A DNA stretch of 63,170 bases, counting the filler, from Intoshia linei (taxonomy: Eukaryota > Animalia > Orthonectida), in the NCBI GenBank assembly GCA_001642005.1. It is 11 parts of 11 records of this genome, joined end to end, with 100 filler letters (N's around TTAATTAATTAA, not from the genome) between each part and the next. Parts side by side here need not be neighbours in the genome. Positions count along the whole stretch, not along the records: positions 48,373 to 61,987 come from LWCA01001011.1; 10 more parts are not named here. One strand, given 5' to 3'. The notes below the pieces were generated by a model. It did not search any database. It was not told the DNA's origin and was given only the letters and a program-made list of their open reading frames with translations. Position numbers and translations under genes: made by a program. Position 1 is the first letter of the stretch; the number at the start of each line of letters is the position of its first letter. This document shows, one piece after another, positions 4,375 to 63,170 of this stretch.

Positions 4375-5002
4375 ATGTTCAACCAAGCATTATTGCTTTT
4401 CAGTCTTTTTCCAACGTTCCGGTAGTCTATTTATACCATTAGCATAAAAACTCGCTACTTTATTGGAACTCAAATACCACATTTATTCGATTTAATCATC
4501 CTTTTAAGTGCTCGATGTACACTTGTTCTTGAATAACAAGCAACATTTGATAATAACGTACATGTTTGAATTGGAGATTTTATCAATTCCTCTTTAATTT
4601 TGTCTTCATCTACTAGACTAGGTCTACCGGAACGTTGGACATTTTCTAGGTTATAATTGTTTTGAATGAATTTAAGAACCATCTTTGAGTCTTTCGTATG
4701 CTGATAGCATATTTGTCATAAACATTACACATATTTTCATTAGTTTCCGATACAGTATGCCCCATATTGAACTCATAAAGTAAAATATGTCTGATATGAC
4801 CATCATAATCATCCAACTTGTTTTTGTAAATACTAATTAAAAAAATGTTTGTCATCGGAAATTACTCTTTCATCGAATACACATTTGTCCATATTTCGTA
4901 AAAATAAAAAAATAACGCGCTTACAATAAATATTCGATAAAAATATAGTTATTTATAATAAAGTTACAATAAAAACGGCATTACTTATGAAACGACCTAA
5001 TA
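4375..5002 (-). mobile_element. Internally deleted, frameshifted mariner transposon
   Basis: HIRHILLYEFNMGHTVSET...WF plus RSGRPSLVDEDKIKEEL (Mos1-type HTH), jumping to the C-terminal FYANGINRLPERW. A mariner-type TIR (TATTAGGTCGTTTCATAAGTAATGCCGTTTTT) lies at 4970-5002. Confidence 0.85.
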
Positions 5003-42716: not shown

Positions 42717-44141
42717 ATTAGGAGATTGTATAGCATCCTCAACTAATGAATTATCAGAATTAGTTAATTCCACCTGTACAGGAGATTCTTTGGAACAATT
42801 ATCCTGACAGATATATTGTTGTAATTTTGAAGTAATTGGATCATTTTGTTTGAAAAATCGGGAATGAAAAGTAGGTTGTTTTGGTACATGTTTATCAAAA
42901 TTTCGTTTAACCCTATTGGTATTTAGGCTGATTTGATTTTGCCGAGTTTATAAATCTATTTCGAGTATTATTGATTAATATTGAACGAGGGATAAATGGT
43001 ACAGACAAAGAGCGTCCATATAATAATTCAGCCGGTGATTGCTTATTCTTAGAAGTAGGCATATTACAAATATCCGTAAGAATTTTATCTTTGATTGTTC
43101 GGTTTATTCGTTTTACTTGACCAACACCTTCATGGTGATATAAGGATGTGAACGTTTTCGTGATCCCTACAGCTGAACATAAATTTTTGACAATAGCTGA
43201 ATCAAATTGGGTACCTTGATCGGTGTGAATTTGATTTGGAACACCATACCGTGCGACAATATTATTTAGTATGTTATACGCCACACAATTAGCGGTCATA
43301 TCTTCAATAGGAAAGATTTCAGGCCAACCTGTAAAATGATCGACCATGACCAATGAATAACGTACCATTTTTTGTAACAGGCAATGGACCAGCAAAATCA
43401 ACTTGCCACAATTCGTTAAATTTAGATGAAATAACTTGCTTTAATGGATGATTATAACGTCGCCTACCAGTTTTAAATAAATTACATTTAAAACATTTCC
43501 TAATAAAATCTGTAACGACCTTTTTCAATCCCGTACAATAAAAATTGTTTTATTGTTTCTTCAAAAGATTTACTCAAATATGCCATGTTTAGATCAATAT
43601 TACTGTTCAATTGTGGATCACAAGGATCAAAACTAATCGTTAATTTGTCCTTAATAAAATTAATAGACTGGCTCGATAAGCTATTACGTAATCTTGTAGG
43701 ATTTTGGAACATATCAATGTTATGATTGACAAAGAAATCTAAGCCTAAGATTGGTTTTGAAACATTCGAGACAACAAATTATGGATAAGAGAGTTATTTA
43801 AAGATTTTGGTTTTTAGTGTTCCCTTATTTATTATTGGATTACCATTAACATCTGTAAATTTCTTATAGGATGGTTTATTCGCTTTAAACACACTAGGTA
43901 AAAAGGAGGAAACAGCTCCTGTATCAATAAGACATTTAAAATTCCGTTTATCAATAGTACAGTCTATATAAAATAATGAAGTCGCATAATTAAAACTATT
44001 TATTACTTCATAACAATATTCAAATATGTGTCCTTTTTTACCACATTTAGAACATAAGGGAATCAAGTGCTTCAAGTTACAATTAGCGCCATTGCATTTT
44101 CCTTGTAAATAATTATCACAAATTGTATTTGACTGAGAGTC
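42717..44141 (-). mobile_element. Gypsy LTR retrotransposon fragment (gag knuckle, protease, integrase; RT/RH deleted)
   Basis: CSKCGKKGHIFEYC (CCHC), LIDTGA (protease), then CFKC, WQVDFAGPLP and IHTDQGTQF (integrase), with frameshifts. Confidence 0.9.
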
Positions 44142-45425: not shown

Positions 45426-47012
45426 ATTAGGAGATTGTATAGCATCCTCAACTAATGAATTATCAGAATTAGTTAATTCGACCTGTACAGGAGATTCTTT
45501 GGGACAATTATCCTGACAGATATATTGTTGTTGTAATTTTGAAGTAATTGGATCATTTCGTTTGAAAAATCGGGAATGAAAAGTAGGTTGTTTTGGTACA
45601 TGTTTATCAAAATTTCGTTTAACCCTAGATTGGTATATGGCTGATTTGATTTTGCCGAGTATATAAATCTATTTCGAGTATTATTGATTAATATTGAACG
45701 AGGGATAAATGGTAAAGACAAAGAGCGTCCATATAATAATTCAGCCGGTGATTGCTTATTCTTAGAAGTAGGCATATTACGAATATCCGTAAGAATTTTA
45801 AATATTTGCAAATCCCAATCATTTTTGTTTAGATTTGTGAGACAGCGGATTTTATCTTTGATTGTTCGGTTCATTCGTTCTACTTGACCAACACCTTCAT
45901 GGTGATATGAGGATGTGAACGTTTTCGTGATCCCTACAGCTGAACATACATTTTCGACAATAGCTGAATCAAATTGGGTAACTTGATCGGTGTGAATTTG
46001 ATTTGTTATACGCCACACAATCAGCGGTCATATCTTCAATAGGAAAGATTTCAGGCCAACATGTAAAATGATCGACCATGACCAATAAATAACGATTACC
46101 ATTTTTTGTAACAGGCAATAGACCAGCAAAATCAACTTGCCACAATTCGTTAAATTTAGATGAAATAACTTGCTTTAATGGATGATTATAACGTCGCCTA
46201 CCAGTTTTAAATAAATTACATTTAAAACATTTCCTAATAAAATCTTTAACGGCCTTTTTCAATCCCGTACAATAAAAATCCTGTTTAATTTTCATCACTA
46301 TTTGAATAATGCCTGAATGGGAGTTGCAATGTAATTTGTCTATCAATTTATCTCGTAATAAATTAGGCGTAACAATAAGTATATTTCCATTATTCTGACT
46401 AAAATAAAGCACATTATTTTTAATGGTGAATTTACGTAAGTTTTTATAGTATTTGTTTGATGAGTCAACGGTTTTATTGTTGCGTAAGAATTTAATAACT
46501 TCTCTACAATGAGGATCATTTGATTGAAATTTTTGAATATTTAAATCATCATTAGCATGTATAATAGCATTACACCTGGAAAGTTGATCAACCATTTTAT
46601 TCATTGGCCCGGGTCTATATTTTATTGCATAATCATAACTTTGTAAATCTTGAAACCATCTGAGTTTCATACCCCGCAATTTGGCTGAATTAGCTATTGT
46701 AGTTAAAGGATTGTGATCAGTTAATATAGTAAATTGTTTTCCAATTAAATAATGTTTAAATTTGTTTACAGAATAACTTATGGCTAAAACTTCCTTGTCA
46801 ACAGTACTATAATTTCTTTAAGCTGACGATAATCGCCTACTAGCATATTCAATAGGTTGATTATTTTGCATAAGAACTGAATCGATACCGAAATCAGATG
46901 CATCAGTTTCTAGTGTAAATGGCAATTCTGTGTCAGGTAATTTCATGGCAGGTGCAGGTGATAATTTTTGTTTAAGTGTGTTGAAAGCATGTATACATTT
47001 TTTATCCCAAAC
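45426..47012 (-). mobile_element. Gypsy LTR retrotransposon fragment (RNase H, integrase), same family as 42717-44141
   Basis: FTLETDASDFGI..PIEYASRRL..FTILTDHNPL (RNase H), HHCC zinc finger and integrase core. Near-identical to the 42717-43545 segment. Confidence 0.9.
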
Positions 47013-47619: not shown

Positions 47620-49708
47620 TCTAATAAAGTAACAGGAGTCAATTTTTAAAAAGTTCCATATTGCTATTAAAGTTTTTCATATATCATTTTCAGAAATTAA
47701 GTCCTTCAAGGTCAAAAACCCCAATTACCCTTTTTTTAAAAATTATTAAAACGAGTCCTAGAATATTAAACAATTCACAATCTAATGATTTTAAAATTAT
47801 CAACATTATAATTATTTTCAATTTTAAAATCTAATATCTTTACGGCCAAATCCACAAATGACCCTTTTTTGTAAAAATTAAGAAAATCCTAAAATTTTTT
47901 TAAACATAAATTCTGGTATAGTTTTTAAAATCATAAACATTATCATAAATGGAAAAATTAAAAAAATATTTTCACGATCAAAACCGCACATTACCATTTT
48001 TTTTTAAATGAAAACGGCCCTAGAATTTAAAAAAATTACAGACGGTACAGTTGTATCCTTTTAAGACACACAAAAAATTTCAATCTGAATAAGTGACACC
48101 TTCACGGTCAAAAATGTACTTTAATATTCATTTTTTTTATTTCGAAACTATTTTATTAAAACAAAAAATATAAAATAATAAATGGTCCTACAATGAAAAA
48201 AAATTATTATTCTGATACAGCTTATTCCATTTGATATAAATACAAAATTTCAACCCCAGAAATCTACGCATTNNNNNNNNNNNNNNNNNNNNNNNNNNNN
48301 NNNNNNNNNNNNNNNNTTAATTAATTAANNNNNNNNNNNNNNNNNNNNNNNNNNNNNNNNNNNNNNNNNNNNTTATACAGTTCAATATAAATATTTATAT
48401 CCACAGTTTGAAAAAATTCAAGAACAAAATCAAATAATGAATGAAATCGTTGTAAGCAACAACCTTTAGAAAGCCATCTGACCTCTGTGTGTAGTAAAAG
48501 ACGTTCAAATTCTTTCTTTGCAGAAGTAATAATTTAATTAAAATAATGTTTTAATTTGTTAAAACAGTTTTCTGTGTAAGTTGCAGTAGCGTAGCATGAC
48601 TTTTCTCACAAGGTGTGCGATAATGGTTCCTTGGTAACATAATATTTTAAAATACAGTGTTGTGCACTGATATACGAGCTATTGTGCATTCATATACGGA
48701 CTATTGTGCACTCATATACCGACCATTTTAACTTTTGATTGTATTGCACGGCATTATGTAATGTTAATCAAATTAGTTGAGTTTGGACCGGGCCACTCAA
48801 CATCAAAATTTTTCCCTAAAAAGTTTAAATATAAATACAAATATAAAACAGTGTTTTTATCCGGGATCGCGCGAATTTGAAAAAATAAAACTGTTGATAC
48901 TTTTTTAATAATTTTATTTGTCACTTGATATTGTTTTGAACACATATTTTGTATATATTGTATATAGAAAATTTTCAGACAATATTGATCTTACAATTTA
49001 AAAAAAAATGTGCATTGAAGCTCTACACATTTCCAATAAAGACATATGGGTGAAAATATATATAATTCATTTCTTCGCAATTTTTCATACTCATTTCGAA
49101 AACATGTTTAAAATATAAATTAAAACTACAACAACGAATTTCTAAAACTAATCCAACTTTGTTATCATTTTATATTGTTACAGTGTTTTGCAATAATGGT
49201 AAAATTCACCTGAAATATGTTTATAAAGTGAAGATTATGTTAATTATTGATACATAATTGGTATTTTTAAGTATTTATTAAATTGGTACTGAATATATAT
49301 CATCACATTGAAAATGACAACATAGGTTTTTACAATTTTATTTTTGCTGGAATTTATACTATTTATGACAATTTTTAAGATTGGACTGTTTTTACTTTAT
49401 TTTAATATTATACACACATTTTGTCTAAATTAAAAAAATGGGATAACAATTGTTTTTAAAATTCTTTACGCATATGTTAAAAAAACAAAATTAAGATGGT
49501 ATAATTCACTTTAAAGTAAAAAGTCATGTGATATGATGGTTCCACCTGAAACAATTTTGAGAAACACTTCTTTAAAGGATTGATAACGGTAAATAGTCGA
49601 ATTTTTAGGTTAAATTTTCTTATTGAATTTATTTTTTTGGTAGAATGAAAATGTTCGCCTCTGAGAGCTAGAATGCTGTTTGTACGAAGTACATAACAGT
49701 CAAGCTAG
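47620..49708 (+). mobile_element. Family A Helitron-like copy interrupted by a gap, possibly running to the 3' hairpin-CTAG at 49708
   Basis: 47700-48272 matches the reverse complement of 380-750, and 48975-49262 matches the reverse complement of 1-330. A hairpin tgtacgaagtaca plus CTAG|t lies at 49681-49708. Confidence 0.55.
48655..48730. repeat. Short minisatellite, about 3 copies of a 22-bp unit
   Basis: tatacgagctattgtgcattca / tatacggactattgtgcactca / tataccgacc. Confidence 0.6.
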
Positions 49709-49850
49709 TTATTGATAAAACAATTTTCAATCTCATGGAATACGACTTCTCAGGTTGTCAATCAATTTCCTAATCGAATTCAATGAACGGAATTTTATTT
49801 ATCGTTGCTACAACAATACGACTATTTATAATAATTATAGAAAAATTAAA

Positions 49851-52800
49851 ATGTCTCACGAAAAAGATATTATGAAGTTAAATTTGTACAGTGTGTTAGA
49901 CATTGAAGACTTTTCCGATGAAAAACAGGTATTTCTTAAGTAACAGTTAATTAATTTGTTATAACAGTTTTCTGTGTAAATTGCCGATTTAAAAAATATT
50001 TTGCATTTTATGTTTGCGACTCCATAACTATTGTTACAAACTTAATACTTTTTTATTTGATGTATCATTTTAGATTCGAAAAGCTTATAGAAAATTATCG
50101 CTAAAATACCATCCTGATAAAAACAAATCTGCAAATGCCGGTATGTTTATTTGTTCTATGGCTTGACAATACACCACTCCAGAAAAATTATCAGTTTATT
50201 CGGGGATTAGTGGTTTATGCCCAATGAGACTGTATGACAGCTTAATATACTATTGTAGTCGATTGTTTAATGCCTACTTTGTTTGTGTAGGTGAGAATTA
50301 CATTTTACTTTATAAACTTGTTCTCTGGTAAAATAGTATTTCCAACATTTAATGGGCAATAAGGATGTACTTCTTTTGAAAATTAATACACTTCTGATTT
50401 TTGGTCACTCAGTATGTCGAATTTTTTTCTATATTTCATTTTTTACACTCACTTTTGTGTACAATGTACATAGAATGTTATGCGATACAATAACACTTTA
50501 TTACATCTTCTCTAGCGTCAGTTCCACTTTATTTATAAATAGTATAATTTTTTCGAATTGATTAAAAGAGTACCCTATTTATTAAAATTTTTACATACAT
50601 TGTTTTAGTTACGGAATTTTTGAAAATTGGAAAGTGTTTGGAAATTTTAACTGATAAAACGCTACGGGTAATCTATGTAGCTTTTAATATAATCCAGATC
50701 TTAGGACCAATATGACTGCACCCTTAGATCAAGGAAGGCTGCAGAAATTAGACTATCAGCAATGAATAAACAGCGTAAAAAATTAAGAAATGGTTATTTC
50801 AATTTTTAAATTTAATAGAATTGATCAATTAGATTTGGAATTACGCGAAAAAAACTTTAAAGCAGAAGAAAAGTTGAGTTCTGATTATGAAGCACGGGTA
50901 ATTTTTCACTAAAAATAATGGTGATATTTATTTCTTAGATTAAAATGTTACGAAAACAAACAGAAGAAATGTTAAAGAATGAACTAAAAACATACAATAA
51001 GGAAATTAAAAAATCAGGTTATTTTATTATATAATTATAATTTTATTATGTTCTGAAAATTCATTTTTGTTATAAAAATGCTTTATTTTAACAGAAAATA
51101 TAGTATATAGTGCGCGAATAATGATAAGCCTAACTGTTTTTTGATATTTTCATGATTATTTCAACTCTATTAACACAAATACACAATTATTGTTGATTAA
51201 ATTTAATTATAAATAAATGTTTATTGTATATTATACAAAATATAATGTTATAAAATCATTCATGAAGATCTTCACCGCGCCTTACAGCACCATAGTATCG
51301 CTCCACATGATTGCAGAAGTGAAGTAATTTTTGTAAGGTAAGGACATGTATTGCTTCATTAGAAATTATTTCAAGAATTCGCATGCGAAATTCACAAATT
51401 GATACACCATTTATTCTTCTATATGCTATCATCTGAGACATTTCATCCCTAAGCTTTATATTCACCTCGTTTTTGAAACAACTCCATGCAAGCTCAATTG
51501 GATTTAGCAAATGTGAATAGGGGGCTAATCGTATTCTTATCACAGATTCAAGTTTGCTGTGAACAGGAGCATTGTCTATGACAAAGGTAGGTGAAATTAC
51601 GCCTATTTCGGTACACTCATCAATCAAACTTCTGAACCAGTCATTGCAATCATCACCTTTAAATGAGCCGCGGTGAGTCTTGAAATTGAATATTCTACTT
51701 GCAGACATCGCAGCAATACAGTGGATATTTGAACCTTTCGAACCTGCCGTAATAACCGTCGACCTGCATCCAACTTTAGACCTACCCTCCTTTCGTATAC
51801 AAAACAAATTGAAGTTAGATTCGTTAATCAAGATTATAGTTCTACCATTAGATCTCGCCAATAGTAAACTATTAACATAGTCAACTCGCTTCAATTTGTT
51901 TTCTGGGCTATTAACATTGATGGGCATTGGTCTAATAGCCTTCAACGTGAACAACTCACAATCCAACCAATTTTTTATTGTATTTGTGCAAACTGTTACT
52001 TGAAATACTTGGAACAATTTATCCACGCATTCCTTGGATATTCAAATGTAATACTTCGAGCTATAAGCATGCACATGGATTGAGTCATTGCAGTGACGTG
52101 TTCATCCGATAATTTAAAATGGTATTTTTTTCCTGTTCCAAATGTTTTAATTTCATTATCGACGTGTAAATATAAGGATATTTCGTAATGCAATGATATC
52201 AATAAGAAATTTTCAATTAGCGCATATGATTCAACAGAGTGAGACGGAAATGTGAGGTTTTGATACACCAAATCTGAAAGTTCAACTTTTTTCAAATGTG
52301 GTGAAACGCTGAGTTTAACGCGTATTTTCTCTGTACTATCATCATCAATATGTAAGTCTTTAACCGCCTGATACACACAATTACCTTTCGAATCATTATA
52401 GGTAGCCGTGATGCATTCTTCGTTAAAATAAATATTTATAAAATAGCATTTGCTATATGCAGGTGGTGGGTCATCATCAACAGTATCAGATTTTTTTCAA
52501 AGGTGTCGTTGTACGCATCGAGTACAAAATCACTATCTAATCCATCCAATTTGCTTTCTTCACGAACAAAATTGTCCACAGTTAAATTTTCACCAACATA
52601 TTCTTCAAGTTCGTATTCAATCGTAACGAATCGACACATGCGATCTAGCTGTATCGCAAGTGTAAGTTCAGGTTTGATAAAATTAGCGAGTTTAGTGTGT
52701 AGATTCGAGAAGAAATCTAGAAAAGTTCTCTTAATCGTTTCGGTTACAGCACATGAAAACGTAGCTTCATTTAACAATTTCGCAACAACAGCGTCATCTT

Positions 52801-55278
52801 TCATCATTTATTTCACTTTACACTTAAAACTAAATAACTTGTTAAAGAATTTCGTACATGCAGAACTCTCACCATAAGATCGTAGTTTCTTCTCGGACTC
52901 CATGAGTATCGATAACATTTTGGTACACTGGTATGACGAATTGTATGCAGTCATAAAAATCGCGAAAACAACTTTTTGCAAATCACATATTTGCATCCTT
53001 TTAACATTACGCATAGTCGTGCCTCCTATTATTTCACGTGTATTAAACATGTTTGCAGCAACCAATAAAATTTTCACAGTAAATTTCCCATCAGGTAATG
53101 ATAGTGCGTACGCATATAAGTTTTCATGATACTTATATCAGGATTAATGATACTCATAATGTAATAATATTAAATTTTTATATATTAAAATGTAAGAATT
53201 GAACTCAATATAAAATTTTTGATTAATCGAGTATAATAACTTTAAACGAGTAATCAGTATATATGTAAATATTAGTATATTATATTTCCAGATTACTTTC
53301 TTTTGAACGTTGTTGTATACAACATTCTAATTGAAAATGATTTAAAATATTAGTTACCGATTTACAATCGTAATTTAATATTATTTTTCAATTGTAACAA
53401 TAAATTTTATTACGGAGATTTTAAACTCTAATTTTTTTTTAGCAATAGTAATCGAGCATCCAATTGGGTTTCCGTTTTGAACGTATATTTCTTCTCTTTT
53501 CTTGAGTCGTATATATTTCTTCAAAAGTCAGATTAGAATCAATCAAATCATTGTCAATTGTAGAATATTCTGCAAATTCACTTATTATTTCGGTTTCTCG
53601 ACTTGTTAAGAATCTTTTCTTTCATGTTTAAATTATATATATGATTATAGTTAACATTTTCAGTTAACATACAAAGATGGAACTATATAGTTCACGCTAT
53701 TAACTCGATCTATAACCTGTTATCCGTCAACCTCCTTATAAGATGGGATGATGCCTTGTTTCAAAAACATTCTCATTCTGTGATCAGCGTCCCTCTGGAT
53801 AATTATTATTTTTGGGGGACATTTTGACCAAAAGTGGGTGGTCTTTTCAAAAATTTTTAAAAGCATATTCGTAACATATATAAAATTACTCATCTTTCTA
53901 TAATAGAGTTTTCAGATTTAGTTTATTTGATTTTTACTTTTATTTCTGAGTGTGTGTGCGCCTCAGATTGTAATAGGTACACGATTCGTACCCTATTAAA
54001 TTTCTACATAATGGTCCTTGAGATTTGGGTGTTAATGAGAACTTTAAGTCCTAACTGCCAACAGGATCATTTTCAAATTGTAATGTTTAATAAATAATCT
54101 AGACATTAAAGTTAAATAATTATATTTACATTTGTTATAATGTTAATATTCTAAATTGAATGAGTGATATTAAATTTTGTCTCATTGGCAAATGTTAATA
54201 TTTATATATTTTGTTAATGGTGGTTAGGGGAACCATTAAGGGATAACTAAATTTTATTAAAATATAAAAGGCAACATACTTATTACAGAGATAATGGGTG
54301 TTGATAACTTATATTGTCAAACTCTTAATAAATTAATTATTCAATTTAATTTAATTTTTTTTTATTTGATAAAATTGAAAATTTAATTTGTTGATAAAAA
54401 TTAAAAATATATATTTTTTTATATATTTTCGCATCGCTCAGGTTAGGAAACACTGCTTTAGCGTCATACTTTTATTAATATTATTTTAGATAATATCAAT
54501 CCAACAGAATATCCTATTTTGAAGGTAAAATGGAAATTGGATCAAAACGAATTAAAGTATGATAAAAGCATTTTATCTCATACATTTTTACCTGTAATTG
54601 TTATCAAATAATAATCAGTAATTGTGAAACTCGTTAAAAATGTAGGGAAATAGAATTTATGTTACTTTAAGACACGAATAGACCCACGCGAAGCTTTTTT
54701 TATTATTTTATTTACATTTTTTTTTTTGTAATTTTCATATATATCACGTTAATTGAATACCATCCATACTCTAAAATTATTTTACTGTGAAATATTTAAT
54801 TGAATCTTATAAAATATATATCAATATATCATTAACACAAATTTAGTATGGAAGAGTTCATTCAGTGTATATATCAAAATCAAATTCTGCTTTAGTGGAA
54901 TTTTCAATGTTATACGTACAAGTAATTATTTTTTGTTAACTATTGATTTCAAATTTAGCCTAGTGTAATATTAAATGAGGAAGGATTAGAAAAAAACCCT
55001 TTAAGTTGCAAATGGGATAATGGCGATGCAGTTAAACAGTTTTATATTAAATGTTCACTCAACAACAAGGTAATATAAATTTATGTGATTTGTGACTTAT
55101 TTCCTTAGAAGTGGCGATCATTCGATAAATTGAGTGATACAAAATCCAATACTAAACTGCCTACAGGAAAAAGCCAACAAGATATATTGGTAATTAACGA
55201 ACTAATTGGATTGTTAATTAATAAATTTAGTACGAAAGTATGGAAAATGACGTTTTATCAAGAATGTTAAATTCCTGA
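49851..55278 (+). CDS. DNAJC17: DnaJ homolog subfamily C member 17 (J-domain plus RRM), multi-exon
   Basis: LNLYSVLDI..EKQ/IRKAYRKLSLKYHPDKN (HPD motif)/..LEILTDKTLR/DQYD..RKAAEIR..RKKLR/..LELRE../PILKVKW../YGRV..SALVEF../NEEGLEKNPL..W../YESMENDVLSRMLNS*. Confidence 0.85.
51103..52040 (-). mobile_element. Tc1/IS630-like transposase remnant in a DNAJC17 intron
   Basis: IILINESNFN (first Asp changed to Asn), FVIDNAPVH and LAPYSHLLNPIELAWS; only 26 aa between D and E, consistent with a deletion. The 5' end is replaced by non-transposase sequence. A possible terminus lies near 51105. Confidence 0.85.
52040..53157 (-). pseudogene. Putative endogenous viral element: nege/kita/virga-like (+)ssRNA replicase fragment with OTU-like protease
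   Basis: One reconstructed frame of about 370 aa, broken by an in-frame TAA (52808-52810) and a frameshift in an A7 run (about 52491-52497). LYAYALSLPDGKFTVKILLVAANMFNTREIIGGTT..DLQKVVFAIFMTAYNSSY resembles the post-methyltransferase region of tobamo-lineage replicases. NDSKGNCVYQAV..ENFLLISLHYEISLYLH..FGTGKKYHFKLSDEH resembles a viral OTU. The segment is intronless and richer in GC than its flanks. Confidence 0.6.
53437..54110 (-). mobile_element. Highly degenerate Gypsy integrase 3' end
   Basis: Minus-strand fragments QVIDRVNSVNYIV (GPY/F-like) and RRNIRSKRKPNWMLDYYC*, a typical Gypsy pol tail. Confidence 0.5.
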
Positions 55279-55337
55279 TTCAAAATATAATCCAACAAAT
55301 GGTAATACACCATTGTAAATAAATTTTCAATTTGATA

Positions 55338-55835
55338 ATGTTGTTTCGTTTCGATTTGATTCTAATTGGTTTTTGTTTACCCTGTAATTTTTGGAATATT
55401 ATCTTTATTTATTCATATTTAGTTGTTAGCTGCAATTTTACCTGCTTTAGTTGTATTAGTTTATCTGATGATATGTATGATAAATGCAATAGGAATCAAT
55501 CAGTTTTAAATTCAATAACAAAGTGTGCGCTCCTAGGAACAAATGAGTCCTGCATTGTAAATTTTATAATTACATAACAATTTGATAAAATTAGACTCAC
55601 ATGGTTGACAACGTAGTCTCAAGGTTTTGTGGGCCCAAGTGCGATTACACTAAATGCAATGGTCTTCTTGGTAAAGCGGTATTTATACGAAGTACTAAAT
55701 TAACTAAAATCTTAGAGATGCGTTCAGTGTTGTAATGAAAACAATTGCAACGATGGTTGGGTTCGTTTGAACGCCAATGCAGTTTCTTTGAATCTTATAT
55801 TTATCGTTATAGTTTTAATTTTTAGCCTTCATTAA
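55338..55835 (+). CDS. GPI-anchored Ly6/uPAR (three-finger) protein, 4 exons
   Basis: Hydrophobic leader MLFRFDLILI/VVSC, then FTCFSC..KC..SCI/..RFCGPKCDYTKC../RCVQCCNENNCN (CCxxxxCN signature) and a hydrophobic GPI-type tail LNLIFIVIVLIFSLH*. Confidence 0.8.
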
Positions 55836-56382
55836 ATATTCATATTTGGTTATTTTAAAAATTCATAATATTTTTTCTAAATATCACAATAATAAAAAGA
55901 GTTCCATTAACATTTTAAATGAGTTATAAGTGGACTATAAAATTCGACATTTTGAGAACTCAAAAACACGAGTTTGTCATGCATGTTGTGCTAATATTAA
56001 TTTGAATTAAACATTTTGTTTTATTTCAAATTTAACCCAATTCCAGATTTCTTAAATTTACCAAAAGTATAAAAAAATAGATATTGACCAAACAGGACAA
56101 AATATCTATTTGCAAAATCAATTAACACTATCTGTGAGACATTTGTCCATTTGAGTATTGTACCATTTTAAACAATACGAAAATGAAAAACAATGTAATT
56201 AGTTCATAATAATATATTGGTACATAATATGTACCTGCAAATAACACATTGAAGTATAAATTCTAATAATACAAGCATGACAATACTTGTAAGTTGTATT
56301 TAACGTATTCCTATTTTGAATCAATTCAACTAATTATGGCTAATGATGATATTGATTTATAAGACTATTGATCAATCTAAAA

Positions 56383-59300
56383 ATGGATCGAGTCAAAATT
56401 AAAGATAATTTTAACAGTAAAATTTTAGCGTACATTAAATTAAATGGCAACAACATTTAGATTACGATGTATTATTTAAAAAAGGTGAAGGTGCATTTTC
56501 AACCGTTTATAAATGCCTAAATATAAAAAACAATGAATATTATGCATGCAAGATATTAAAGAAAAAATTTAATAGGTTTAAAATTATAATTTTAGATAAC
56601 TATTTGAGCCATTCTCTAGCAAATAAAATATAAATATTTCAATTTAAGTGATCTATAAGAAATGATATCTAAGACAAATACTCATAGATAGACTTATCGC
56701 GTATGAAGGCGTGCAACATGGTTATTTGCACTATTTTACATAGAAGTAAATACTAAAACGTAAATTTACAATGAAACCTTGTCACAGTATTACGCGCAAA
56801 AATATGAAAAAATTTGAACATCAGTTTTTTGATGATTCTTGTGAATATTAAATTAATTGAAGTTTTATAATAGATTGAATAGTGAGATACGTACGTAGTT
56901 AACAGTTATTTGTAAAATTAAAAAAATGTATTTTTGTAATTAGACTATAAATTCGGTTCAAAATACACATAAAATGTTACAGCGTTACGAATTGAATTTA
57001 TTATTTACGTTATACATTTATGGTATTAATAAATTGTAAATTATATCCACAAAACGGTGCTTCACCTCTATGTTCTGATAAATTAACACTTTAATTAACA
57101 TTAATATAAGTATAATTATATAATTTTAATTAACACAAATAATTATACATTTTAATAATTAACTCGTGTTTTTAAATTCTAACCACATTATTTTTACGCA
57201 CATCCGATAGATTTTAATTTTCTCAACATTACCATGCAGTGTTATGATTTTCGTAGTCAACATTGGCGTAGTTATGATGCATTCTTTTTGAGAATGTATT
57301 TTAAAATATAATTTGTTTTAAGAAATTATGTCATAATTTCTTAATAGAGCCTTAATATTAGATTTTATAATATTTTTGAAATATAATGAAAAGATACGAA
57401 TCAAACAAAACAAAAAAAAATATGGTAGCATATAATTTAAATTTATCGTTTTTTTAATTTATGGCAGAGAATGGATCATTTATTGATTTACAATTATTTA
57501 TATTATATTAATGTAAAATTGAAATTATTCATTATTTTAGTAAAGACAATATAGGAAATTTACGTGAAATTTTTGCATTAAAATCAATGTCAAAATGCAA
57601 AAATATAATTAATATTCATGAAATAATTTTTGAAAAAGAAAATGGCACTGTATATTTAATTTTGGAATTATTCGATATGAATTTGTATCAATTTATGCAA
57701 GGTAGGTCATTACTGTTTAATATTTATAATTTCCACAGGTATCTTTTTAAATATTGATTTTAGTTCAAAAATATCCTTTGAAAACGCATGTAATTCTCAA
57801 AATTGTCGTTAATGTCTTAAAAGCACTTGAATATATGCATAGGTAATATACTTTCGATATGCTTATCATTAATTTTAAAATTTAGATTTTGTTTATTTCA
57901 TAGAGATATTAAACCTGAAAATATACTAATTAAAGTAATTTTTTTGATCTGAAACGGGTACAGAGTGAGCACATGACCCGGCTTTATTCGCCATATACGT
58001 ATGATCAAGAATACGTAGGAGGCATAAGACCGTATGACGGTACCAGATCACCAGGGCCCTACCATTATAAATGAGTAGGTGATGTTAAAAAAATCGAAAC
58101 ATGTTTTTATATCAACAGGGAATACTGTAAAAAAGTTTGACACTGGATTAAACAATTGATACTAGACCACATTTTTTTAATTTGTATATATTATAAGTAA
58201 TATGACTACAATTTTCGTCTGGTTTGGGACGGGCCATGATTGGATCTCCAGGGTCCTCAAATCGTCTACGACTGTAATTAATAGGTAATATTGGAAAATT
58301 TCATAAATAAGTCCAATTATTTTATAATTTGGTCTTTTAATCAGTGAAACACAATTAAATTAATATTTATATAAAAAATTCATAAGAAAAAAAATTTAAT
58401 ATATAAATTTTAAAAAACAAAAATTATTTTGAAGTAATTATCAAAAATGATCCATGAGAGGCTATTCGTTACCTTTGAGAACGGTGCTCATAATATACAA
58501 ACGGATATTGATAATATTAGCCATTACGGTCCGGTAAAATGCGAAAATGTAAGACCGTGGAGTCTCATGTAAATCACAAAACATTACAGATACAAACATT
58601 ATACTAGGTCACCTCAATGGGTAAATCCGGCTGTAATCTAATTTATAATCTTATAAAAACGTTTTTAAAAGCCAAGCATGCGACAAAAGTGACTTTTTTG
58701 AGACAGTTTCAATAATAGAAAAATTCCTAGAATAATTGATATTTAAGGTCCGCATCATTTTTATTATAATAAAATAGTTCTAAACACCGTTCTTCCCTTT
58801 AATAAAATCATTACAGTGGATAGTGATAAGAAGGTCCATATAAAATGAAGATTTTGATGTAAATATGAAATTATAACGAATGGCTTAAATATTATAACCG
58901 TTAAGTATCACTACGTTTTTCTCAATTATAAGAAGTCTTCTTATATTCGAGAGTAGAAAAAAAACTGTTTATAATAAAAAACAAGCAGACTTGTAAACAT
59001 ACTTTGAAAAATATAAAAAATACACTAAAAGTATGCTTTTATATTTTAAAAACTCGTTAGAATTGTATTAAATTACATCTTGGGTATTGTCAAAATCTAT
59101 TTGATATAAAACTTATAAATTAAATAAATAAAAATAACAATGAAGTCTATTGAGGAAGTAAAAAATGAGCTTTGTGAAGGACTTAAAGAATATTTGGTCC
59201 CCTTGATATCATTGATTATGAGTACATTGAAAATATTAAAAACACGTCCGAATCACCTTATCTTAATGAAATTTTTGTTGTTTATAAAAAATTTTAAATT

Positions 59301-60457
59301 CAGATTATTTTCAACGAATTAAATAAACAGCATATTGTATATGGTGAAAGCAAAACTTCTAAATTAGACATTCTATTGTATGAAGGAAGTTATTTTTTAA
59401 AAATGAATTGATAGGTTGTCTATTTTTTTGTTTAAAGTTCTTTCTTTCGAATACAAGCAGAAACTGCTTATATTCAAATTTTATTTAGTTAANTCTTTCT
59501 TTCGAATACAAGCAGAAACTGCTTATATTCAAATTTTATTTAGTTAAAAATTTCACTGAAAATTTGTATTTCAGGGGTCTGCTTATAATCGAGAAAAGAC
59601 AGTAGGGTTGATAAATGTAATTTAATTAGGTAAATTATATTATGACCGGTTGGAATAAAGTATTTTCATTGTGGATATTATAAAATCATGACATGGTTAA
59701 TTCACTGTGAAGCATAATTAAATATTATTCATTTATAAATAATTCTATTCATACATTTTGTCCCATTTTAAAAAAAATAATAATAATTTAGAATGGAGTA
59801 GCTAAATTGGGAGATTTTGGATCTGTACAATCGATGAGAAAGTGCAAACCACTTACCGAGTACATATCGACAAGATGGTAATTACTACAAATTTAATTTT
59901 GGTTCAATTGTTTGTGTTTCAGGTATCGATCTCCAGAGTGCTTACTCACGTGTGGTCAATATAACTATAAAATGGATATTTGGAGTATGGGTTGCGTAAC
60001 ATTTGAACTAATTACGTAAGTTTTTTTACAGATAATTAAATTTCATTCAATGTCACTGATATAGAACAATGGTTTAAGACCCTTAATTTTAATCATTTTC
60101 AAATTTAATTATATATATTAAATGTAAACAGATTTAAACCATTATTTGCTGGAAGAAATGAACTGGATCAAATTTCATTAATACATACAATTTTTGGTCC
60201 AGATAACAACACATTAGACTGTGATAGGTAATTTTAAGTATTACTATCTATATTTAAAAAATATATTCCTTAGACTCGTTCCATACAAAACGTACAAGAA
60301 ATTTAGGGAAAAATTAGTTCAATACCTTAGAAATGTATTATCACAAAAATTTGCCAATTTTGTGCATTTTATATCATTTATGTGCATTTATGATGCACAA
60401 TACCGACCTTCAGCTAAAAAGTGCTTACAACACTATATTTTTAGAAATTATCGGTAA
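56383..60457 (+). CDS. MOK: MOK/RAGE MAPK-like kinase, multi-exon; true 3' end uncertain
   Basis: KKGEGAFSTVYK..YYACKILKK/..NLREIFAL..LIFELFDMNLY/..IHRDIKPENILIK/..KLGDFGS..PLTEYISTRW/YRSPECLLTCGQYNYKMDIWSMGCV/..PLFAGRNELDQISLIH. The TEY motif and LLTxG pattern match MOK. One more exon may lie at about 60904-60949. Confidence 0.85.
56607..57477. mobile_element. TIR element in a MOK intron (GAGCCATTCTC termini)
   Basis: gagccattctct ... agagaatggatc; the right part is repeated at 40254-40404. Confidence 0.55.
58912..59604. mobile_element. pogo/Tc2-like non-autonomous element in a MOK intron
   Basis: ta-cgtttttctcaattataag ... cttataatcgagaaaagacag-ta. Confidence 0.55.
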
Positions 60458-61122
60458 TATTTAATTTGAGTTACCAGCTGTTTGAATTTCAGTGTGATCA
60501 GTTAATATGAGGATAATTGTTATGTGAATAACAGTACACGACCGGATTTACAACAAAATGGATCAATTTTCACAATTTTTTATGTGTCTTGAAATATTTG
60601 ACAGGGTCCATAGTTCTAAATGTGAATTTAAAAAAAACTATGAGGCGAAAATTTCCATAAATATATGCTAGTACATGAATAGTCAATTATGTATAAGGCT
60701 TATAATAAGCAGAATATTATTCAGCGTTTAAATAATAGAGATGGTGAATAATTAATGTTGATTCCTCATCTTTCTTTTATGTATGATTAAAATTTTAAAA
60801 ATTAACGAGAAATGAAATTGAAATGCACATGAAAAAACTAAAAGTGTACATTTGTACACAAAAATAAGGAAACAGCTTTTCTATTATAATATTAATTGTT
60901 TAGTCGCATTCAAAAGTGTTCCCTTTTACTTATAGTTGCACAAAGATAAATTTTAACCAGCTTTAAAAAAATAAACCAATTTCAGTCAACCCTAATAATT
61001 ATGTACTAACGTTGCATATATTTAGTGAAATTTATGTCCCTTCATTATAAGCGCAGCAATAGTTATTGCTAAAAGTGAAATATTATTAATAACAATATTT
61101 TGTACATATATACATTTACATA

Positions 61123-61620
61123 AGTAATTCTCGATTGGGGTCCCTGGACCCCTTGGATGTCCAAACTATATTCCTGGGTTCGTGTGATTTAAATAAAATA
61201 TACAAAATTTTATAATATTTATTACAGATTTGCCAGATGTTGGGAATTAATTCCAAAGACTAGGGGACCGGTACATTATTATTTCAAAAATCCTACTTTG
61301 ATCCCACTATTAAATTTAATTTAAATAAATTTCATAAAAAATGAAATTTTAAACCCTACGATTATTTAATTTTAAGGGAAAAATACCCTTTTTCCAATAT
61401 TTTTTTTGAAAGCACAGTTTTTCTCATATGATTTTATTGGATTAGAACTCTTATTCCAACCTAATCAAAATTCAATTTTAGCAACGCTTAAGGGAAATAT
61501 CCACTTTTACTAAATCTTATGAGAAAAAACTTTAAAAAAACATTTTTTCATAAACGTTATATATTTTATGTTTTCTTTGTGGGTCCAAAAAAATAAATAT
61601 TTTGAAATGGTGGTCCGTAT
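61123..61620. mobile_element. hAT-type MITE (family of 23309 and 45082)
   Basis: ttctcgattggggtccctggacccc matches 45088-45110; the right part is the reverse complement of 23340-23520. Confidence 0.6.
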
Positions 61621-63170
61621 TAATGTTCAATTTTTGTAAAAAATACTGAGATTTACTGAGTACTGAGTTATTTAATGAGTACTTAGTTTCACTTTTACTA
61701 AGTTATTAGATTTTGTTTATACTTAGTTATACTTTTAGTGAGTTTTAATAGTAATATTTAATATTATAATTTATTATATTTAATAGTAATAGTAAACTTA
61801 CTACAACCTGATTTACCTGACTACAACAATTACCTGATACTACAAATGTAGTTTATTATAAAATTCGGATATTATCTTAATCTACAGTATTGGCCATATA
61901 ATTTTAATAATTTAATATTTTTATATTAATGACATATAATTAAATAACCAATAGAGGAAATTAAACAAAATTTTAGATAGTAATGTANNNNNNNNNNNNN
62001 NNNNNNNNNNNNNNNNNNNNNNNNNNNNNNNTTAATTAATTAANNNNNNNNNNNNNNNNNNNNNNNNNNNNNNNNNNNNNNNNNNNNATAATTTGCAATG
62101 ATAAATACCAATAAAATTAACATTTACATTTCATATTTTAAGCCTTACAAGACAATTGCATGTATAGATGCCAAAAACTACACTCATAAATTTACATTGG
62201 TTTGTATACAAACCATAATAAGGCGGTACCAATATAAATTTTGAACACATTACTGCTCATACAATAACTTGTAATATGCGTAAAANTTATTATCAATGTT
62301 TACTTTGTGTCAACAATAAAATAAATTATATATGAAATACAATAGACGCGACGTCATTGTAATTGCGTGTCATAATAGCTATATACATGTCTAATGCCTT
62401 ATTTTCACTTTACCATACGAGTTTGGCAGAATGCATGAACTCGAAGAGTGAGTGCATTCCACACACGAGTTTTGTAAAAGTGAAAATTATAAGCTATGAC
62501 ATGTAATTTTTTTTACTATTTAGTCTATTGAATCAAAATTTCAATTTTTGCATGTTTAAATATATAAATAATTTATTTTCAAAAACTTTATTATTTAACG
62601 ATATTATATTGTGGATTATTCTATACTGATATATAGTTTCTATATTAACGCGGTAATAGAAAGTAAATCGATGTTCTCATATCAACCAATGAAAATGAAG
62701 AATTCTTCTCACTAAACTGTAAATTAAATGTATTTTATTGCTAATTCTTAGCCAAATTTAAGTTGTTCACTTTACAAATCAATGACATTTGAAATTTGTG
62801 AATTTTGAGCTTTAATTTTTAGTGTTTTTTAACATTTTAAAAGTGAAATTTTTTGCTTTTAATTTTGAAAATCAACATAATCTCATAAGGGTTAAATTGT
62901 TAATTATTTTTAAATTTCAAATTGTTAGAACTTTCAATTCAAATTTTATTGTTCTTTTTGTTTCTAAGACATTTCGAAAAGTATATGTATTTAGTACTTA
63001 TAAAATCTGGACACTCGTTAAGGCTAATGTGGAGTACAAATTTTATGGTATGTCATAAAATATCTTTGGTATTCCATTAGATTGCACTATTGCAGTGGTG
63101 GGCAAACTACGCCCCGCGAGATCATGCTTCATACTTATGTTTACATTCAAATTTTGAAATTGATTGACAT

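Follow-up and report, generated by a model that had tools for sequence, protein, structure and literature searches.

The Host Gene and Its Enlarged Intron

The window analysed here, a stretch of 63,170 nucleotides joined from parts of the genome of the orthonectid Intoshia linei, contains a piece of 13,615 bp (positions 48373-61987) in which one intron of a J-domain chaperone gene carries a fragment of a nege-like virus. The fragment lies between a Gypsy-like piece and a truncated Tc1 transposon copy, and all three read on the minus strand, antisense to the host gene. We describe these components in turn and weigh how they may have come together.

The chaperone gene (49851-55278, plus strand) is delineated by spliced contigs of three sequencing runs (X2, X3, and X5), which contain 11 GT..AG joints; the run contigs used throughout this work carry no information on RNA level, strand, or ends. 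The joined exons form an intact open frame of 284 codons with an N-terminal J domain, recognized by Pfam DnaJ on exon 2 (E = 1.9e-8) and by DnaJ entries of the PDB. The other six host-gene exons scanned, searched as short single exons, gave no match in Pfam, the C-terminal RRM included. The architecture fits that of DNAJC17/Cwc23, and we use DNAJC17 as a putative label. The NCBI model A3Q56_06079 of I. linei, discussed below, matches part of the query sequence at 100% identity.

Intron 6 (51018-54489, plus strand) holds the whole stack. An original prediction, made from the sequence alone, had placed a 3.5-kb host intron here, and the contigs bear it out: bounded by GT..AG and 3,472 nt long, the intron is skipped exactly in spliced contigs of all three runs. 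The other ten introns of the gene measure 37-468 nt, and we therefore regard intron 6 as swollen by insertions; at least five kinds of sequence can be told apart within it. The whole stack is removed by splicing and is most likely neutral.

An Endogenous Nege-like Virus Fragment

What had been predicted as a virus-like fragment can be assigned to open reading frame 1 (ORF1) of a nege-like virus, of which 1.1 kb (52036-53137, minus strand) is preserved, as found by homologue, tblastn, and profile searches. Searched against 1.84 billion representatives, the first viral frame, read from 53137 with X at the stop, has 37 protein matches, the best at E = 3.5e-20; they fall at about residues 390-630 of replicases mostly 2,000-2,900 residues long. 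The second frame extends the homology in order to residue ~760, reaching 52038 by tblastn, and the whole piece is colinear with nege-like replicase residues ~390-760. A profile built from 32 full-length relatives recovered the two frames with E-values of 7.7e-45 and 3.7e-25, and found no further match anywhere in the window. The piece is decayed, with one in-frame stop (52808-52810), one frameshift (~52465-52530), and truncation at both ends. It is a non-retroviral endogenous viral element (EVE) of nege-like replicase origin, and likely records a past infection.

The identity of the matches agrees with this assignment. Pfam, applied to 21 of the viral matches at E ≤ 1e-5, found RdRP_2 and a viral helicase in 19, and FtsJ and Vmethyltransf in 11 each. 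Among the 30 matches (of 37) that were looked up, 15 carry virus names (13 nege-type and two virga-like), 13 are unnamed, and two have other names, an I. linei protein and a partial Undibacterium protein. In this tally, Cordoba virus is counted as nege-type, and the 15 named viruses are taken to be arthropod-associated, save that the host of Pimento is unknown. Wuhan house centipede virus 1 is counted as nege-type following PMC7154061, which is also our source for the methyltransferase-FtsJ-helicase-RdRp (RNA-dependent RNA polymerase) architecture of ORF1 in nege-like viruses. The fragment spans the end of the capping methyltransferase region and the linker behind it, and stops before FtsJ. 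Within the linker, a candidate OTU-like Cys/His motif (window 51999-52496) appeared as an Atlas lead (0.88); a strict form of the pattern occurs in 12 of the 32 relatives, and in all six relatives scanned Pfam left it uncalled at E ≤ 1.

No known virus matches this fragment closely. Protein identity to the nearest known viruses is 28-46% over the best-conserved 109 residues, and in a tree of 109 columns and 38 rows, the piece falls outside every starred group, its placement being unsupported. Its nearest neighbor, with 43% identity, is the protein of another I. linei locus described below, although a clade of the two is not resolved. Other routes gave little: a homologue search based on words returned the I. 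linei model alone and none of the viruses, the PDB held no match, and Pfam offered nothing credible on the viral pieces, DUF4489 staying under its cut-off. Three IMG/VR loci matching 24 residues (E ~6e-4) were dismissed as chance matches. Separately, the protein filed as Undibacterium sp. (P0035, partial, from a 682-bp contig) matches nege-like replicase and is probably of viral origin, misplaced among the contigs of a bacterial assembly.

The Tc1 Copy and Its Junction with the Virus

On the minus strand, the viral piece runs directly into a Tc1/IS630-type transposase (51256-52035, minus strand) that is 5'-truncated, as had been predicted, and retains 260 open codons and a DDE_3 domain (E = 2.6e-12). 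It is followed by a 3' untranslated region and a putative right terminal repeat (51099-51255, minus strand), with AATAAA at 51220-51225 and an end at TA (51099-51108). The first catalytic Asp reads Asn in this copy, and a short internal deletion leaves a D..E spacing of 26, where the family would have 34-35, judging from its contigs. These contigs differ from the intron copy at 5-7% of letters, with 24-27 gap letters. The copy is predicted to be inactive; it is a truncated relic, without paired terminal inverted repeats (TIRs) and TA duplication.

The direct fusion, previously put at about 52040, lies at 52035/52036 (minus strand), where the family contigs part from the window in four of four runs, continuing 313-763 nt past 52035 on their own. 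Since their next base beyond this point differs from that of the window, the break is sharp and lacks microhomology on the Tc1 side, the only side on which it was judged, as the other calls for the viral donor sequence. A comparison with family consensuses had been suggested to define breakpoint and microhomology; the family contigs give a clear breakpoint and, on that side, none of the latter. At the opposite end, the copy continues for ~110 bp beyond AATAAA and finishes in a TA-bounded stretch of DNA that appears to be multi-copy; no poly-A tail is present there. A contig of unique DNA breaks at 51125, suggesting that a repeat starts there, and the end at 51099 may be the right TIR of the element. 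In X3 and X5, contigs of the family end at 51199-51219; this hints only weakly at the end of a transcript, since a contig of DNA breaks within that span too (51211). A 14-mer near 57856 that resembles the inverted Tc1 end was dismissed, as it sits in a short AT-rich intron.

Could the fusion be a product of assembly, with a contaminating virus joined to host DNA, or else one copy of a mobile composite element? A reason to ask is the NCBI model A3Q56_06079 (P0002; 51256-52807), which unites virus-derived and Tc1 transposase sequence in a single gene. It does so through predicted introns that are unseen in the spliced contigs, and is likely a mis-annotation. A single unbranched contig of 2,173 nt from run X1 covers 51956-54128 with four differences, at a depth of 14.9 (flanks, 10.5-13.4), X1 being possibly the source of the assembly and contig depth only a rough guide. 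In a different study (X2), a contig of 169 nt bridges 52035/52036 with no differences. The viral part has no contig cover in X3, X4, and X5, and two short low-depth contigs in X2. Because spliced host exons lie on both sides and the junction is bridged in two studies, the viral piece is embedded in host DNA and is not a contaminant. The original prediction had raised the prospect that the virus-Tc1 junction recurs at other loci; no second copy was seen among the X1 contigs, where no other contig aligns to the viral part at 80% likeness, and this argues against a mobile composite, with the proviso that copy number was judged from run contigs, which can hide rare or identical copies. The missing left TIR points the same way. 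Both an artefact of assembly and a composite present in many copies are unlikely, and of the explanations considered in this work we rate this one the least probable.

The Gypsy-like Piece and Its Surroundings

Upstream of the virus on the minus strand, a candidate piece at 53439-53800 (minus strand) has the appearance of a decayed integrase tail from a long terminal repeat (LTR) retrotransposon of the Gypsy type. By eye, it combines a GPY/F-like motif with a basic tail, resembling the patterns of LTR integrases, and the Atlas gave a weak lead to an LTR-polymerase SH3 cluster (0.87). We consider it probable that this is a Gypsy integrase tail. It is cut off by a scrap of an unrelated multi-copy repeat (53808-53898), which several contigs in four of four runs contain with unlike continuations at both ends; a scrap of another multi-copy repeat, found by contig alignment, lies at 54239-54332.

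Between the Gypsy-like piece and the virus lies an AT-rich spacer (53138-53438; 18% GC). Non-coding DNA of about 280 bp had been predicted here, and the spacer fits that description at 301 bp. It has no viral homology by profile and no purine tract followed by TG; nor did we find a purine run of at least 10 followed by TG after the stop of the Gypsy-like piece, or any long direct repeat. The spacer is possibly the 3' untranslated region of a retroelement.

A Second Nege-like Locus

The I. linei protein that sits nearest to the fragment in the tree is the product of A3Q56_02648 (OAF69571.1, P0006), a model on another contig annotated as a hypothetical host protein. It matches the viral profile at positions 256-353 (weakly) and 366-505, and between these parts, it contains a piece of an I. 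linei Gypsy integrase family (score 79, reached in 0 of 500 shuffles). From the model sequence, nege-like fragments would appear to be tied to Gypsy in this genome. Its viral parts are 43-45% identical to the intron fragment, and because two fragments of one genome differ this much, the source was likely a different virus. The pair suggests at least two germline entries in a marine spiralian parasite, and both NCBI gene models, A3Q56_06079 and A3Q56_02648, are better viewed as virus-transposon mosaics than as host genes.

Elsewhere in the window, decayed Gypsy pol pieces (RNase H and integrase) occur at 42717-44141 and 45426-47012, on short contigs of their own; they belong to the same family as the insert in A3Q56_02648.

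Origin of the Stack

The explanation we favor, to which we give a probability of roughly 0.48, combines Gypsy-type capture of viral RNA behind a pol tail with a separate Tc1 insertion and a deletion that fused the two. An RNA virus without a reverse transcriptase of its own needs one from the host. In this scenario, a nege-like virus would have been present in germline cells, where a Gypsy-type reverse transcriptase would have switched onto viral RNA; the template switch would have placed the viral piece behind the Gypsy pol tail, and the chimeric cDNA would have integrated in the intron. A Tc1 copy would have arrived on its own by cut-and-paste, and a deletion, or an event of end-joining, would have removed its left end and first ~500 bases, together with the sequence beyond the virus, any polypurine tract and LTR included. 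Integration of the cDNA may have preceded or followed the arrival of Tc1 and the deletion, and the other repeats would have cut into the intron later.

Reverse transcription of the viral RNA by an LTR retrotransposon is likely. The LTR route is favored because LTR elements make up 1.3% of the I. linei genome and long interspersed nuclear elements (LINEs) just 0.02% (with DNA transposons at 8% and repeats at 42% overall; repeat figures given in PMC7943196), and because the Gypsy-like tail lies co-oriented 301 bp upstream of the virus. Mosquitoes provide precedents. Of the 614 LTR elements nearest to an EVE in Aedes, 543 share its polarity (10.1101/127498), and LTR elements recombine with viral RNA (PMC6797480). 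The virus-transposon hybrids described from mosquito cells all involve LTR families, despite the abundance of Tc1 in the material that yielded them (PMC6797480). Since the host here is an orthonectid, insect precedent is not directly transferable. The original prediction had likewise invoked copying of the virus by an LTR retroelement; this part remains plausible, in view of the genomic repeat content and of A3Q56_02648, which mixes nege-like and Gypsy sequence, while the Gypsy identity of the intron piece is unconfirmed.

The following observations weigh against Gypsy capture as we have framed it. The integrase 3' end claimed at first was not confirmed: 53439-53800 gave nothing above background in Pfam, a homologue search, the PDB, and two frameshift-aware scans, so that the motifs seen by eye and the Atlas lead stand against null statistical tests. 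A two-sequence Gypsy profile reached 17.5 on this piece, below shuffled maxima of 25.5-37.5; the frameshift-aware scans, one with a single sequence and one with a two-sequence profile, drew on only one or two distant Gypsy tails and had little power. The piece and the virus share polarity and are separated by the spacer, without a direct junction, and the stack retains neither an LTR nor a polypurine tract or target-site duplication. The putative Tc1 end has no inverted partner in the window or contig, so the single end is a candidate. At the second locus, the viral coordinates are nearly unbroken over the Gypsy piece (353 to 366), and the model would be as compatible with Gypsy having entered an existing EVE later as with co-capture; moreover, it is a predicted protein, seen without the underlying DNA.

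Many of these points suit an explanation that stands close to the favored one in probability, namely independent accretion, in which viral cDNA was joined alone by end-joining, possibly at a Tc1 break, and in which the Gypsy-like piece either inserted separately or is not of Gypsy origin. The stretch of 18%-GC DNA parting virus from Gypsy-like piece, the null Gypsy tests, the resemblance of the A3Q56_02648 locus to a nested insertion, and the two other unrelated repeat scraps within 1 kb all speak for it. Common orientation is also cheap: that all three pieces are antisense to the host gene has a chance of 1 in 8 if they are independent and of 1 in 4 if Gypsy and virus form one unit. However, a co-oriented LTR-like tail within 300 bp of the virus is improbable by chance if LTRs are ~1.3% of the genome, and both nege-like fragments of I. 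linei found here adjoin Gypsy or Gypsy-like sequence.

The TA-bounded end of the Tc1 copy, the absence of poly-A, the sharp junction without microhomology, and the 5-7% divergence from its family point to a separate DNA event; Tc1 was likely inserted on its own, and a deletion likely fused it to the virus afterwards. The original prediction had proposed a single reverse-transcription event switching across Gypsy, viral, and Tc1 RNAs, with serial insertion and deletion as an alternative, and the alternative is the better fit for Tc1. The three-RNA switch would account for the common orientation and the direct fusion, and the Tc1 family is expressed in the runs with spliced contigs. It is set against a copy that continues past AATAAA to its TA-bounded end, with neither poly-A nor an LTR behind it, and against the mosquito viral cDNA, for which PMC6797480 reports no Tc1 hybrids. 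The missing Tc1-side microhomology counts here too, as a weak point, given that switching is sequence-independent in the same account (PMC6797480). We regard a single event across three RNAs as very improbable, ranking just ahead of a composite or chimera.

Comparison with Known Systems

The element is of a known kind in an unexpected host, and no new capture mechanism emerges from it. Nege-like EVEs are already known in arthropods (PMC6580184), and negeviruses are described as insect-specific (PMC7412485). Viral-family RdRP genes have been noted in the I. linei proteome, the family being unnamed in the relevant text (PMC6396948). Within the literature covered, subscription journals not included, we found no description of the I. 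linei element, nor any work on non-retroviral EVEs and PIWI-interacting RNAs (piRNAs) in lophotrochozoa.

The closest parallel is with the non-retroviral EVEs of Aedes aegypti that lie adjacent to Ty3/gypsy elements, as characterized in 10.1101/127498 and PMC6797480. Like them, the I. linei element is part of a positive-strand RNA virus within host DNA, co-oriented with a probable LTR-element piece and antisense to the passing transcript. Unlike them, it sits in one intron of a protein-coding gene of an orthonectid rather than in an extensive piRNA cluster; it retains no LTR, its Gypsy neighbor is putative, and any small-RNA output is hypothetical. A second parallel is offered by insect retrotransposons with viral helicase domains (PMC6338049), which also place an alpha-like virus replicase beside a retroelement. 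Those described are in-frame, conserved, and contain whole domains, in contrast to the single, out-of-frame, and broken I. linei piece.

Compared to the nege/kita-like viruses (e.g., Aphis glycines nege-like virus 1, Wuhan house centipede virus 1, Negev, and Loreto), the fragment is colinear with ORF1 over ~370 residues, from methyltransferase towards FtsJ; beyond its low identity and unplaced position in the tree, it differs in having no helicase, RdRp, or structural genes. Similarly, the Tc1 copy shares the DDE_3 domain, a TA-bounded end, and membership in a multi-copy I. linei family with Tc1/IS630 DDE transposons, from which it departs by the loss of its left end and N-terminus, the Asn at the first catalytic site, and the internal deletion.

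A Possible Small-RNA Role

Whatever its origin, an antisense EVE in a transcribed intron might feed piRNAs or small interfering RNAs directed against nege-like viruses, a role compatible with either capture or accretion. We consider it unlikely. In its favor, the pre-mRNA of the transcribed host gene runs antisense to the EVE; three PAZ-PIWI proteins and one Dicer are counted for I. linei (PMC7943196); and in ticks, 90.9% of EVE-derived small RNAs are reported to be antisense, with a first-position uridine (1U) bias (PMC6580184). Against these stand the facts that the locus consists of a single short fragment within an ordinary gene that is spliced efficiently, and is no large cluster, that antisense orientation amounts to a coin toss, and that the nearest known viruses, at the protein identities given above, provide no matching known target. 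Furthermore, PMC7943196 lists the three PAZ-PIWI proteins without Argonaute subfamily and counts no eukaryotic RdRP.

A broader conjecture, that orthonectids host their own lineage of nege-like viruses, archived repeatedly via Gypsy reverse transcriptase, with antisense intronic copies yielding antiviral piRNAs, is somewhat less probable still. If it were true, a spiralian would possess heritable immunity of the mosquito kind, operated from the introns of ordinary genes. The two I. linei fragments offer studies of viromes and small RNAs a definite starting point in a group whose viruses have hardly been studied.

Other Features of the Window

Several other features lie outside the stack. A very high-copy repeat occupies ~48950-49710, just upstream of the chaperone gene, where summed contig depth is ~13,000 against ~11 on unique DNA. 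Within intron 6, a 15-mer at 54441-54455 lies beside an AT-rich repeat and has no partner beyond chance; it resembles a hAT terminal repeat. A piece with a candidate hAT-like transposase motif lies at window 48321-48533, and a mariner-type helix-turn-helix piece at window 4649-4861. The next gene on the plus strand (56439-57940) encodes a protein kinase and has short introns.

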